Below, in pieces: positions 12,001 through 18,000 of a stretch of DNA of 53,117 nucleotides. Every line of letters begins with the position of its first letter. Position 1 is the first letter of the stretch. Origin of the DNA: a virus (Duplodnaviria > Heunggongvirae > Uroviricota > Caudoviricetes); the IMG/VR virus record IMGVR_UViG_2718218452_000009. One strand, written 5' to 3'. Position numbers: made by a program.

Positions 12001-15000
12001 AATAAAAACATCTCAGAATGGTGTATCCCTCAAAACGAGGGAAAATCCCCTAAAACGAGGGATAAAACATCCCTCAAATTGGGGGATTGCTATCCCTCAA
12101 AACAGGGGGACACAAAAGACACTATTACAAAAGAAAAAAGAAAAGATTATTCGTCCGAGAATTCTGGCGAATCCTCTGACCAGCCAGAAAACGATCTTTC
12201 TGTGGTTAAACCGGATGCTGCAATTCAGAGCGGCAGCAAGTGGGGGACAGCAGAAGACCTGACCGCCGCAGAGTGGATGTTTGACATGGTGAAGACTATC
12301 GCACCATCAGCCAGAAAACCGAATTTTGCTGGGTGGGCTAACGATATCCGCCTGATGCGTGAACGTGACGGACGCAACCATCGCGACATGTGTGTACTGT
12401 TCCGCTGGGCATGCCAGGACAACTTCTGGTCCGGTAACGTGCTTAGCCCGGCCAAACTCCGCGACAAGTGGACCCAGCTCGAAATCAACCGTAACAAGCA
12501 ACAGGCAGCCGTGACAGCCAGCAAACCAAAACTCGACTTGACAAACACAGACTGGATTTACGGGGTGGATCTATGAAAAACATCGCCGCACAGATGGTTA
12601 ACTTTGACCGTGAGCAGATGCGTCGGATCGCCAACAACATGCCGGAACAGTACGACGAAAAGCCTCAGGTACAGCAGGTAGCGCAGATCATCAACGGTGT
12701 GTTCAGCCAGTTACTGGCAACTTTCCCGGCGAGCCTGGCTAACCGTGACCAGAACGAACTGAACGAAATCCGCCGCCAGTGGGTTCTGGCTTTCCGGGAA
12801 AACGGGATCACCACAATGGAACAGGTTAACGCAGGAATGCGCGTAGCCCGTCGGCAGAATCGACCATTTCTGCCATCACCCGGGCAGTTTGTTGCATGGT
12901 GCCGGGAAGAAGCATCCGTTATCGCCGGACTGCCAAACGTCAGCGAGCTGGTTGATATGGTTTACGAGTATTGCCGGAAGCGAGGCCTGTATCCGGATGC
13001 GGAGTCTTATCCGTGGAAATCAAACGCGCACTACTGGCTGGTTACCAACCTGTATCAGAACATGCGGGCCAATGCGCTTACTGATGCGGAATTACGGCCG
13101 TAAGGCCGCAGATGAGCTTGTCCATATGACTGCGAGAATTAACCGTGGTGAGGCGATCCCTGAACCAGTAAAACAACTTCCTGTCATGGGCGGTAGACCT
13201 CTAAATCGTGCACAGGCTCTGGCGAAGATCGCAGAACTCAAAGCTAAGTTCGGACTGAAAGGAGCAAGTGTATGACGGGCAAAGAGGCAATTATTCATTA
13301 CCTGGGGACGCATAATAGCTTCTGTGCGCCGGACGTTGCCGCGCTAACAGGCGCAACAGTAACCAGCATAAATCAGGCCGCGGCTAAAATGGCACGGGCA
13401 GGTCTTCTGGTTATCGAAGGTAAGGTCTGGCGAACGGTGTATTACCGGTTTGCTACCAGGGAAGAACGGGAAGGAAAGATGAGCACGAACCTGATTTTTA
13501 AGGAGTGTCGCCAGAGTGCCGCGATGAAACGGGTATTGGCGGTATATGGAGTTAAAAGATGACCTGAACCGCCCCGGGTTTCCTGGAGAGTGTTTTATCT
13601 GTGAACTCAGGCTGCCAGATCATTATTTCCGATGGAAGCATAATAAGCTTTTTCTGCTTCTGCCGGAGGAATATGGCCCAGCCTTTCCAGCAATCGTCGA
13701 TTGTTATACCAGTCCACCCACGTTAGTGTGGCCAGTTCCACTTCTGTCCGGTTTTTCCAGCTCTTACGGTGTATTACCTCCGCTTTGTAAAGACCATTGA
13801 TGCTCTCAGCCATCGCGTTGTCATACGAGTCGCCAGTAATCCGGCTTCCTTAAGCCGCTGCGTGTAGGCCAGCGATACATACTGAGAACCTTTATCACTG
13901 TGATGGATTGTGCCGGACGGCCGACGGGCCCACAACGCCTGCTCCAGTGCATCCAGCACGAATGTTGTTTCCATGGATGATGAGACCTGCCATCCCACGA
14001 TGTATCCGGCGAACACATCAATGATGAACGCCACATAAACGAAGCCCTGCCATGTGCTTACCCAGGTAAAATCAGCCACCCACAACTGGTCTGGACGTTC
14101 TGCCACGAACTGACGGTTTACGCGGTCGCATGCGGCAACGGCTTTCCGGCTGACGGTAGTGCGGACCTTTTTACCCCGGAGAACACCGGCAAGTCCCATA
14201 ACTGCCATGAGACGTGCCACAGTGCATCTGGCCACTCTGATACCTTCCCGTAACAACTGACGCCAGACTTTACGCACACCGTATACCTGGTGATTTTCAT
14301 CGTATACGCGCTGTATCTCTTTCTTCAGCCAGTCATCGTGCTGCGCACGGGCACTGCGTTTATCCGGATGATGTCGCTGTTGCTGACAATGGTAATACGT
14401 TGACGGGGCAATATGCAGTTCGCTGCATACCGGTCCGACCCCGTACTGCTCACGCAGCTTATCCAGCAGTGGCATTATTTTTTCCAGAGGCGGTCGAACT
14501 CCGCCTTCGCAAAATAAGCGGAAGCCTGGCGAAGGATATCGTTACTGCGGCGCAGTTCACGATTTTCACGTTCCAGCTCTTTCAGACGCTGACGTTCAGC
14601 GGTGGTGAGTCCACCATCACCACTCCCGGTATCCCGCTCATGCTGGCGAACCCAGACACGCAGAGTCTCCGGCGTACAGCCAATCTTTGGGGCAATGGAA
14701 CAAATTGCCGCCCACTGTGAGTCATATTCATCCTGACTTTCCAGAACCATACGAATCGCCCGCTGACGGACTTCGGGGGAAAAACGAGTATTTTTAGTCA
14801 TCCTGTTTACCTCTTTCTCAGGGAGTTTAGTCTCCAGGATTTCCGGGGCGGTTCAACCATCTACATCACTGAGCTAATAACAGGCCTGCTGGTAATCGCA
14901 GGCCTTTTTATTTGGGGGAGAGTAAATCGTGGTTGAGTTGATTTTTTCTGCATTGAGGATTCTCGGTGCCATGTGGATGGTGGCGACGTTCATTGTGGTT

Positions 15001-18000
15001 GCCAGCAGTTTTGTCCGGTTGGTAGGCGAAGGTAAAGACCTGGCGGGTGTGATTTTCGGTAGCATTCTCCTGTGGGTGATTATCGGTGTTGCGCCTGTCG
15101 CTGTAGCAAAAATGGCGTGGCGTTTTGTGAGTTGAACTGAGGGTAAGTATCGATGGACGAATCAAGAAAGAAGTTTGAAGAAAGTTGGTTGCGACGTGGA
15201 GGCGAATCCTCAGACCTTATCCGTTACCCTGAAAATCACCATGAAATTGGCAGCGGTAATATTGGTGGTCAATACGTGATGGACGATGTTCAAGGCCACT
15301 GGCAAACGTGGCAGGCATCGCGATCAGCTATTGAAATAACCGCGCCAAAGTTTATCGACAGCAGAGAAGCATTAGCCAAAGGGTTTACTGTTGATTATTC
15401 CAATGGCTTCGGTGATGCAATGGATGCTTATGAGGAAAACATCCGCGCTGCTGGAATCAAAGTGAAGGAGTGAGCATGAGTCGACGAAGTAGCTTTTTGG
15501 GGTTTGTAATATTCCTGTCCTACACTGGTTACATCGTAATCTGGTCAATTTCGAACATTGACCGTGGCGGGGAATATCTCATTGTAATGTTCTTTCCTTT
15601 GTTTCTTGGGTGGTACGCCGCAAGGTTGCTGGAAGAATGGGGTTACAGGCATAAAAAATAAAGGAGTATTCAGTGAAGCAAACAATCTTCCTCCGAACTA
15701 AGCAACAACAGCAAGCTGCAATAAATGCCATCCTCGCAACACCACTCGATAAAGACAAGCCAGTCACCATCCGCATTACTGAACCGCCCCGGTTTTCCTG
15801 GAGAGTGTTTTATCTGTGAACTCAGGCTGCCAGATCATCGTTTCTGATGGAAGCATAATAAGCTTTTTCTGCTTCTGCCGGAGGGATATGACCCAGCCTT
15901 CCCAGCAATCGTCGATTGTTATACCAGTCCACCCACGTGAGTGTGGCCAGTTCCACTTCTGCACGGTTTTTCCAGCTCTTACGGTGTATTACCTCCGCTT
16001 TGTAAAGACCATTGATGCTCTCCGCCATCGCGTTGTCATACGAGTCACCTGTACTCCCTGTTGATGCCAGCAGTTTTGCTTCTTTTAGTCGCTCCGTATA
16101 GGCCAGTGATACATACTGAGAACCTTTATCACTGTGATGGACTGTGCCGGACGGCCGACGGGCCCACAACGCCTGCTCCAGTGCATCCAGCACGAATGTC
16201 GTTTCCATAGACGATGAGACTCGCCACCCCACGATACATCCGGCAAACACATCAATGATGAACGCCACATAGACGAAGCCCTGCCATGTGCTGACGTAAG
16301 TAAAATCAGCCACCCACAGCTGGTCAGGACGTTCTGCCACGAACTGACGGTTTACGCGGTCGCCTGCGGTAATGGCTTTCCGGCTGACGGTAGTACGGAC
16401 CTTTTTACCCCGGAGAACACCGGCAAGTCCCATAACCGCCATGAGGCGCGCCACTGTACATCTGGCCACCCTGATACCTTCGCGTAACAACTGGCGCCAG
16501 ACTTTACGCACACCGTACACCTGATGATTTTCATCGTATACGCGCTGTATCTCTCTCTTCAGCCAGTCATCGCGCTGAGCACGGGCACTGCGTTTATCAG
16601 GATGATGTCGCTGTTGCTGACAGTGGTAATACGTTGACGGGGCAATATGCAGTTCACTGCATACCGGTCCGACCCCGTACTGCTCACGCAGCTTATCCAG
16701 CAGCGGCATTATTTTTTCCAGAGGCGGTCGAACTCCGCCTTCGCAAAATAAGCGGAAGCCTGGCGAAGGATATCGTTACTGCGGCGCAGTTCACGATTTT
16801 CACGTTCCAGCTCTTTCAGACGCTGACGTTCAGCGGTGGTGAGTCCACCATCACCACTCCCGGTATCCCGCTCATGCTGACGAACCCACACACGCAGAGT
16901 CTCTGGTGTACAGCCAATCTTTGGGGCAATGGAACAAATTGCCGCCCATTGTGAGTCATATTCGCCCTGACTTTCCAGAACCATACGAACTGCCCGTTGA
17001 CGGACCTCGGGGGAAAAACGTGTATTTTTAGTCATCCTGTTTACCTCTTTCTCAGGGAGTTTAGTCTCCAGGATTCCCGGGGCGGTTCATTACTGACTAC
17101 AAGCGCAACCTTTACCAGAACGCAAAATTTCACGCGATGCTGGCGGATATCGCACGTCAGGTTCAATGGTGCGATAAATGGTTAAAACCAGAACAATGGA
17201 AGGTTTTGTTGATAAGCGGTCATGCAGTGGCAACAAAGCAGGAAGCTGATGTTTTGCCCGGCCTTGAAGGCGAATACGTCAACATTCGCGAAAGCAGCGC
17301 GCAGATGAGCGTGAAGCGTATGGCAAGTCTGATCGAGTACACAACAGCCTGGGCTATTGGTCAGGGTGTCAGATTTACCGACAGGAGGTACGAATGAGAC
17401 GACAGCGACGAAGTTTCACCGACATCATCTGCGAAAACTGCAAATACCTTCCAACGAAACGCTCCAGAAATAAACGCAAGCCAATCCCAAAAGAATCTGA
17501 CGTAAAAACCTTCAACTACACGGCTCACCTGTGGGATATCCGGTGGCTAAGTCATTGTGCGAGGAAAACAAGGTGATTGACCAAAATCGAAGTTACGAAC
17601 AAGAAAGCGTCGAGCGGGCTTCAGTGTACACTGAGTGGATTCTATCTAGGCTTAGTGCATACAGAAGATTGCTGGTAAAGGACATGCCAGGCAAAACGAT
17701 GAGGACTGATATTTATGAAAACATCTGATTTTTTACTGTTCTTGCATGCGGTACAGGAGGGGCTTTGACCGGGCATTTTATCGTGAATATTTTCACTTGG
17801 TATTTCTTTGGTTTTAGAGATTACTTCACTCGATGGGTTTTAAATAGTTTTCGTCGGTTTATCGGGTGCAAGCCTGATATGAGAATTTATAAAGATGAAA
17901 AGAATTGATTGTTAATGTGTTATGAGGTTTTTTGTTGTGAGTTTGTAATTTGCTTTTATAGAAATACATTAAGTAAATATAATTAAATATTCAAATTGTA

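Follow-up and report, generated by a model that had tools for sequence, protein, structure and literature searches.

Two IS629-group insertions beside ren and within ninB of a lambda-like prophage, with the ren-adjacent copy apparently defective

The insertion sequence (IS) IS629 is a major driver of genome diversification in enterohemorrhagic Escherichia coli (EHEC). Its insertions are flanked by duplications of 3 to 4 bp, and 62% of copies have been located in prophages (PMC3271280). Three IS629 sub-types, differing from one another by ~55 to 60 bp, have been described, namely the IS1203-like (I), Shigella/O55:H7-like (II), and O26:H11-like (III) forms (Rump et al. 2011, PMC3271280), and elements of the IS3 family transpose by a copy-out-paste-in mechanism (bioRxiv 10.1101/2023.06.07.543989). 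Here we describe two IS629-group elements, copy 1 and copy 2, in the IMG/VR virus record IMGVR_UViG_2718218452_000009, a 53,117-nucleotide stretch of Caudoviricetes DNA that is referred to below as the window and supplies all unqualified coordinates. Copy 1 lies immediately past ren and copy 2 interrupts ninB, and it is very probable that a lambda-like prophage was hit twice, in separate events, by IS629-group elements and that copy 1 was crippled later. The insertions and their immediate borders are as follows.

13565 to 14855, minus strand: IS629 copy 1, O26:H11-type isoform (sub-type III), 1291 bp, apparently defective via a 19-bp internal deletion
13562 to 13564 (left) and 14856 to 14858 (right): ACC, the 3-bp target-site duplication of copy 1
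15780 to 17089, minus strand: IS629 copy 2, canonical IS629 type (sub-type II), 1310 bp, appears complete
15776 to 15779 (left) and 17090 to 17093 (right): TTAC, the 4-bp target-site duplication of copy 2
15673 to 15779, plus strand: ninB 5' fragment, the first 107 nt, cut inside codon 36
17094 to 17397, plus strand: ninB 3' fragment, beginning with the third base of codon 36 and running through the stop codon

The copies are in direct orientation, with orfA and orfB of both on the minus strand, and stand 924 bp apart (14856..15779), the interval holding the terminator tR2, three small open reading frames (ORFs), and the first 107 nt of ninB. Copy 1 begins 2 bp past the ren stop codon TGA (13560-13562) and is thus located between ren and tR2, 26 bp upstream of the tR2 hairpin; a repeat scan of the 53-kb window detected no further IS copy. 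The coordinates and features of both elements given in the original prediction, which had been made from the sequence alone, were reproduced in full, including the lengths, the ACC and TTAC duplications, the distance from ren, and the quoted OrfA differences, which were recovered in the ORF translations.

Comparison with IS-free and IS-bearing relatives provides the principal evidence for two insertions. A megablast search of window positions 12600-18000 against 5,426 complete E. coli genomes, the collection used for the genome surveys reported here, yielded two informative relatives, UTAK-6 (NZ_CP157151.1) and C7 (NZ_CP010240.1, from a cow). UTAK-6 carries the same ren, tR2, small ORF, ninB, and ninE stretch without either IS, and both of its junctions are exactly those of the window once each IS and one copy of its duplication are removed. 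The empty site of copy 1 reads ...GATGACC/ATCTAC... (slash, insertion point) with one ACC only, that of copy 2 reads ...GCATTAC/TGACTAC... with one TTAC only, and the intervening 924 bp are in place at 99.9% identity. Exact empty sites in another genome indicate that the pattern is not due to chance. The original prediction had proposed a search for the IS-free ninB allele in related strains, and this allele is common: besides the exact match in UTAK-6, the ninB target sequence was found in 427 genomes, in 425 of which it was unoccupied. C7, by comparison, has both insertions at the same positions and no substitutions over 8.4 kb, within which its two differences from the window are an extra G at ~13096 in gene P and the 19-bp gap in copy 1, both on the window side; among the complete genomes searched, either IS junction was shared with C7 only. 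The elements, their isoforms, the way they behave in prophages, and both insertions (the last in the RefSeq annotation of C7) were already known, and what is seen here is ordinary prophage decay.

Removal of copy 2 and one TTAC from ninB leaves an uninterrupted 136-aa ORF, as had been predicted, whose product is identical to UTAK-6 NinB (WP_000814619.1). The reconstructed protein matches Pfam NinB over its full length (PF05772, E = 4.9e-53; residues 2-131 against positions 2-131 of the 131-position profile) and can be aligned to lambda NinB across residues 2-132, so that its homology to NinB, on which the prediction depended, was borne out. In the interrupted state, the 5' frame of ninB reads on into the IS as a 48-aa fusion ORF ending at 15819, for which an exact-protein look-up returned no record, and the 3' part is annotated in C7 as 'recombination protein NinB, missing N-terminus'.

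The coding and regulatory features within the two elements support their family assignment.

16709 to 17035, minus strand: copy 2 orfA, 108 aa, with an A6 slippery run at 16712-16717 (ORF list, Pfam)
15822 to 16709, minus strand: copy 2 orfB, 295 aa (ORF list, NCBIfam, Pfam)
16638 to 16754, minus strand: predicted ALIL frameshift-stimulating pseudoknot of copy 2 (Rfam RF01497, 120.9 bits, full length)
14475 to 14801, minus strand: copy 1 orfA, 108 aa, helix-turn-helix, intact (ORF list, Pfam)
13774 to 14475, minus strand: copy 1 orfB remnant, a 233-aa ORF (ORF list)
14404 to 14520, minus strand: predicted ALIL frameshift-stimulating pseudoknot of copy 1 (Rfam RF01497, 120.3 bits, full length)
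13832 to 13838: single GCCAGTA left at the 19-bp deletion junction of copy 1 (alignment to strain C7)

Both copies start with TGAACCGCCCCGG and finish with CCGGGGCGGTTCA, and the terminal inverted repeats of each, both intact in copy 1, are complementary at 13 of 13 positions and then at 9 of the next 12, with 5'-TG...CA-3' ends. Pfam assigned HTH_Tnp_1 to OrfA and HTH_21, rve, and rve_3 to OrfB, with orfB in the -1 frame relative to orfA. The terminus of orfA is TGG AAA AAA TAA, the A6 run of copy 1 (14478-14483) likewise standing directly ahead of the stop codon, and simulated slippage with one A re-read gave a fused OrfAB of 404 aa in copy 2, equal in length to the IS1203 and strain C7 references. 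With both copies scoring ~120 bits against ALIL (RF01497, gathering score 50), a programmed -1 frameshift signal consisting of the A-run and a downstream structure is predicted in both. The orfA/orfB layout, this signal, the inverted repeats, and duplications of 3 to 4 bp place the two elements in the IS3 family, where they presumably belong to the IS51 group. Copy 2 OrfB scored 311.8 bits against the NCBIfam model for IS3 family transposases (NF033516, cut-off 160), and this score, the HTH_Tnp_1 and rve domains, the ALIL matches, and the 99.8% identity of copy 2 to annotated IS629 agree with the earlier description of the elements as IS629-like.

The copies differ in their predicted ability to encode a transposase. 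All three DDE residues (D244, D303, and E339) are present in the 404-aa OrfAB of copy 2, the second aspartate and the glutamate being separated by 35 residues. In copy 1, the orfB frame shifts past ...KEAGLLA and reaches a stop 17 codons on, such that the fused OrfAB stops at 342 aa, having lost its frame before E339, and the glutamate of the triad is gone. The OrfB remnant matches Pfam rve only to profile position 93 of 102 and lacks rve_3, and scores 225.2 bits against NF033516 (cut-off 160). Copy 1 thus appears to be a defective member of the IS3 family. The deletion of about 19 bp that had been predicted to break orfB is exactly 19 bp and post-dates the insertion, as the comparison with C7 indicates.

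Copy 1 and copy 2 are distinct isoforms. They differ at 73 of 1291 aligned positions (94.3% identity) in addition to one 19-column gap in copy 1, and between the two types, intact OrfAB is identical at 387 of 404 residues. When the two copies were aligned with elements from seven other records, the isoform distance matrix resolved three clusters, which correspond to the published sub-types I to III. Copy 1, which equals the C7 copy apart from the gap, showed no differences from an IS in gene O of UTAK-6, 8 from an O26:H11 11368 copy, and 13 from a TW14588 copy; copy 2 showed 4 from the O157:H7 Z1766 copy and 7 from IS629 of the O55:H7 phage JLK-2012; and both were 52 to 61 differences away from IS1203-type copies (O111:NM, phage 2851). 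At 99.8% identity, copy 2 further matches plasmid elements that carry the annotation 'IS629 transposase OrfA/OrfB' (AP019707.1), one of them in Shigella flexneri. Judged by annotated elements and the published sub-types, copy 2 appears to be canonical IS629 (sub-type II) and copy 1 the O26:H11 type (sub-type III). Under the ISfinder naming rule, an element takes a name at ≥90% nucleotide identity to the named element, and both copies pass this threshold (copy 2 at 99.8% to annotated IS629, copy 1 at 94.3% to copy 2). RefSeq applies 'IS1203 family' to IS1203-type transposases and merely 'IS3 family transposase' to both window copies.

IS629 isoforms are also visibly mosaic. The TW14588 copy is of sub-type III over alignment columns 1-1000 but of sub-type II in columns 1100-1300, IS1203 has the sub-type III sequence across columns 1100-1310, and copies 1 and 2 are the same over 175 bp (14471-14645), a stretch with 6 differences between copy 1 and the O26:H11 copy. 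Such mosaics imply that recombination or gene conversion has probably taken place among IS copies.

A short segment is bracketed by two directly repeated IS copies whose outer ends are intact, and copy 2 encodes a complete transposase; the arrangement could also be read as a composite transposon. On this reading, the copies would form one unit with the intervening 924 bp, carrying tR2, the three small ORFs, and the 5' part of ninB as cargo, and would have arrived, or could move, as a single piece. The outer flanks of such a unit are unlike, however, with ACC to the left and TTAC to the right, each copy instead has its own matching duplication, and copy 2 separates the two parts of ninB; because the 924-bp segment is in place in IS-free UTAK-6, at 99.9% identity, it is resident phage DNA rather than cargo, and a composite transposon is very improbable. 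An origin of both copies from one insertion, duplicated within the prophage and followed by divergence or gene-conversion patching, would draw on the 175-bp identical stretch, at which the O26:H11 copy departs from copy 1 at 6 positions, and on the mosaic nature of IS629 isoforms, yet it must accommodate 73 substitutions between the copies against none in the surrounding 8.4 kb relative to C7. Each copy is, moreover, within 0 to 8 differences of elements from unrelated genomes, the target duplications differ in sequence and length, and UTAK-6 has the copy 1 sequence, patch included, without copy 2 nearby, all of which renders a shared origin within the prophage extremely unlikely. Independent insertion of distinct isoforms, as originally proposed, is instead upheld by their separate clusters in the distance matrix and by a duplication and an empty site belonging to each.

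Nothing found here contradicts the account of two insertions followed by crippling of copy 1, which carries two caveats. No IS-IS recombinant deletion was found in the 5,426 complete genomes with a chimeric query of ren, IS, and the ninB 3' part, which returned no single-piece match, every full-coverage match being in multiple pieces with an IS elsewhere nearby. In addition, the 19-bp deletion is private to the window, as are two 1-bp insertions relative to C7, and a sequencing or assembly error is therefore possible for the deletion, in which case copy 1 would really be an intact 1310-bp element as in C7. Consistent with such an artifact, the deleted allele had no match in the 5,426 genomes when searched with a 47-bp junction query built so that intact copies cannot seed (a 100-bp query was uninformative, intact and deleted copies tying in the ranking), the truncated copy 1 OrfB was not on record by exact look-up in a large protein-position index, and the single-base insertions (6522 and ~13096, the latter frameshifting gene P) could reflect a lower-quality assembly. 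The sequence at the junction argues for a biological event: at this site intact copies read GCCAGTA-CTCCCTGTTGAT-GCCAGTA (in C7 preceded by GAGTC and followed by ATCC), and the window has lost one 7-bp GCCAGTA repeat and the 12 bp between the repeats, which is a classic signature of replication slippage and unlike a base-calling error. The 39.2 kb shared with C7 also show only 11 substitutions besides three indels. We consider an artifact unlikely, though it deserves some weight; the deletion is either private to the source strain or an assembly error. If taken at face value, it appears to be of the slippage type, between the two GCCAGTA repeats, and later than the insertion, because C7 holds the same copy 1 insertion without the gap; it is new, but trivial.

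The copy-out-paste-in mechanism is compatible with both duplications, both empty sites, and the undamaged signals of copy 2. An OrfAB fusion transposase would be made by programmed -1 frameshifting at the A-run with the help of the ALIL pseudoknot, and the element would be copied into a circle, which then integrates with duplication of 3 or 4 bp of target. In this account, an O26:H11-type isoform inserted 2 bp past ren, duplicating ACC, and a canonical IS629 in codon 36 of ninB, duplicating TTAC and probably inactivating a dispensable recombination mediator. Copy 1 would then have lost 19 bp by slippage, which would frameshift orfB, remove the catalytic glutamate, and abolish its transposase; having kept both ends, it could still be mobilized in trans, whether by copy 2 or by a different IS629. 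Both transposase genes are oriented against the early rightward transcription of the phage, and the nin region is dispensable in lambda. The direct copies are also a potential substrate for a small deletion removing the tR2 terminator, as the original prediction had suggested: homologous recombination between them could delete the 924-bp segment of tR2, three ORFs, and the ninB 5' end, and the longest identical run between the copies, given their 5.7% divergence, is only 175 bp. This part of the prediction stands as a reasonable possibility, while the recombinant itself was absent from the genomes surveyed.

The ninB site is of additional interest. E. coli 1613 (NZ_CP082835.1, record positions 2502..3811) carries an IS1203-type element (sub-type I) that entered ninB at the identical nucleotide and is likewise flanked by the TTAC duplication but points the other way and sits in a different upstream and prophage context; it was found with an IS-reversed query and is an independent hit on the same ninB site. 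As an addition to the two-insertion account rather than an alternative to it, ninB CATTAC/TGAC may be a preferred target, or local hot spot, of IS629-group transposases, a suggestion we offer tentatively. The shared nucleotide and duplication in strain 1613, despite opposite orientation and different context, speak for it, as does the occupancy of 2 of the 427 target-bearing genomes at one and the same position. Set against this are the mere two independent events, which are too few to claim a hot spot, the coverage of complete genomes only, and IS629-group insertions elsewhere in the ren-nin interval (O103:H2 12009, G5, O26:H11 11368, and MLI104K2), and a published survey found no sequence-based target preference for IS629 (PMC3271280). 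It is rather doubtful that ...CCGCATTAC/TGACTAC... is a true hot spot at the level of the nucleotide, struck in separate events and in opposite orientations by two isoforms (canonical IS629 in C7 and the window, IS1203 in strain 1613); if true, it would provide a target-selection rule for IS629 and a first hint of target preference. A scan of viral contigs for the ninB/IS junction gave 0 matches, and no paper pairing IS629 with ninB turned up in a literature search.

Other IS629-group insertions were encountered nearby. E. coli G5 (NZ_CM127462.1, 2853..4162) has such an element inside a lambda-type ninB, after 222 nt, with its far side joined to sitD and no matching duplication, that is, an IS-associated truncation or rearrangement. 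An apparent orientation bias of IS629-group insertions near ren and nin, all of those first encountered being directed against early-right transcription, was rejected as an ascertainment effect, given that the search joins same-strand pieces only; the IS-reversed query recovered 51 records in many lineages, against 100 for the original orientation. A candidate deletion scar adjacent to ren in MLI104K2 was likewise rejected, since tR2 is intact in the sequence and the apparent scar is an annotation quirk.

The genes and signals around the insertions resemble those of lambda.

13272 to 13562, plus strand: ren, 96 aa, intact (PHROG phrog_142 'Ren-like exclusion protein', E = 5e-42; 'protein ren' in C7)
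14882 to 14913, plus strand: predicted intrinsic terminator of the lambda tR2 type, with a GC-rich 8-bp stem ahead of a T run (terminator scan)
14929 to 15135, plus strand: first small ORF between tR2 and ninB, 68 aa
15153 to 15473, plus strand: second small ORF between tR2 and ninB, 106 aa
15470 to 15661, plus strand: third small ORF between tR2 and ninB, 63 aa

The terminator scan placed the hairpin at 14882-14905, followed by TTTTTATTT, and the ren-to-tR2 stretch without the IS matches lambda at 97 of 98 positions; tR2 is the name of the lambda hairpin between ren and ninB. The three small ORFs are absent from lambda, fall among PHROGs (phrog_1165 and phrog_343) with no assigned function, and returned no Pfam or PADLOC match; two of the three look membrane-embedded. 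A promoter scan of 13200-17500 detected no sigma-70-like sites, compared with 4.2 expected from shuffles. The prophage is lambda-like, with int at window position 1 and an NleG effector near the right end, and the window is collinear with a C7 prophage adjoining torS from position 1 (the end of int) to 39222, with tail genes and NleG further to the right.

Gene P (12573..13275) has the extra G at ~13096 relative to both C7 and UTAK-6, its ORF ending at 13103 with 176 aa rather than 233 and its Pfam Phage_lambda_P match cut at profile position 139 of 162; the truncated protein was not on record by exact-protein look-up. If the extra G is real, the prophage would be replication-defective, although it could also be a sequencing error. 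The second private 1-bp insertion relative to C7, an A at 6522, falls near the 3' end of a minus-strand, Gam-family gam gene (~6494..6911) and alters the C-terminus. Within the nin region, a low-GC island (17700..20400; 32 to 37% versus ~50% around it) contains a 590-aa ORF (18080..19852, minus strand), a moron that matches phrog_9230 end to end, is conserved in C7 and UTAK-6 (WP_000612803.1), and had no Pfam or PADLOC match. Past the collinear limit at 39222, which falls inside the tape-measure gene, the window has an intact 859-aa tape-measure ORF, whereas the C7 tape-measure gene is split and joined head-to-head to that of a second prophage, the result of inversion or recombination between prophages. 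The tail gene block includes a gene resembling the P22 antirepressor (P22_AR_N, P22_AR_C; 42094..43140, plus strand), and the type III effector NleG homolog (51586..52218, plus strand) is located near the right end, in a region with a 127-nt direct repeat at 50604 and 51449 (91% identity).

Beyond annotation, the significance of these observations is small. The split ninB, the broken IS, and the apparently frameshifted gene P are marks of decay in the prophage. Lineage markers are provided by the private 19-bp deletion and by both IS junctions, which C7 alone was found to share.

Among known systems, IS629 itself (Shigella sonnei; IS3 family) is closest to copy 2, which is alike in its 1310 bp, TG...CA ends, orfA and orfB, A6 run, ALIL, and 4-bp duplication and shows few substitutions and no substantial difference from annotated IS629 elements. 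From the O26:H11 type (sub-type III), copy 1 differs by its private 19-bp deletion and by the 175-bp stretch matching sub-type II. The same architecture and length are seen in IS1203/IS1203v, the sub-type I isoform that predominates in E. coli O157, and in IS3411, where the ALIL pseudoknot was reportedly defined, with OrfAB 96 to 97% identical; the nucleotide sequence of the IS1203 type stands 52 to 61 differences from either copy. In lambda, the nin5 deletion spans 2.8 kb and takes out the terminators tR2 to tR4 along with ninB to ninH. IS-IS recombination in the window would likewise remove tR2 and part of a dispensable nin region, but only 924 bp and the equivalent of one IS would be lost, and a chimeric IS would be left behind. 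Finally, lambdoid prophages of EHEC, Stx prophages among them, have repeatedly taken up IS629-group elements in their early-right and nin region (PMC10810198; O26:H11 11368, O103:H2 12009), at positions that differ from those in the window, strain 1613 alone sharing the exact ninB site.

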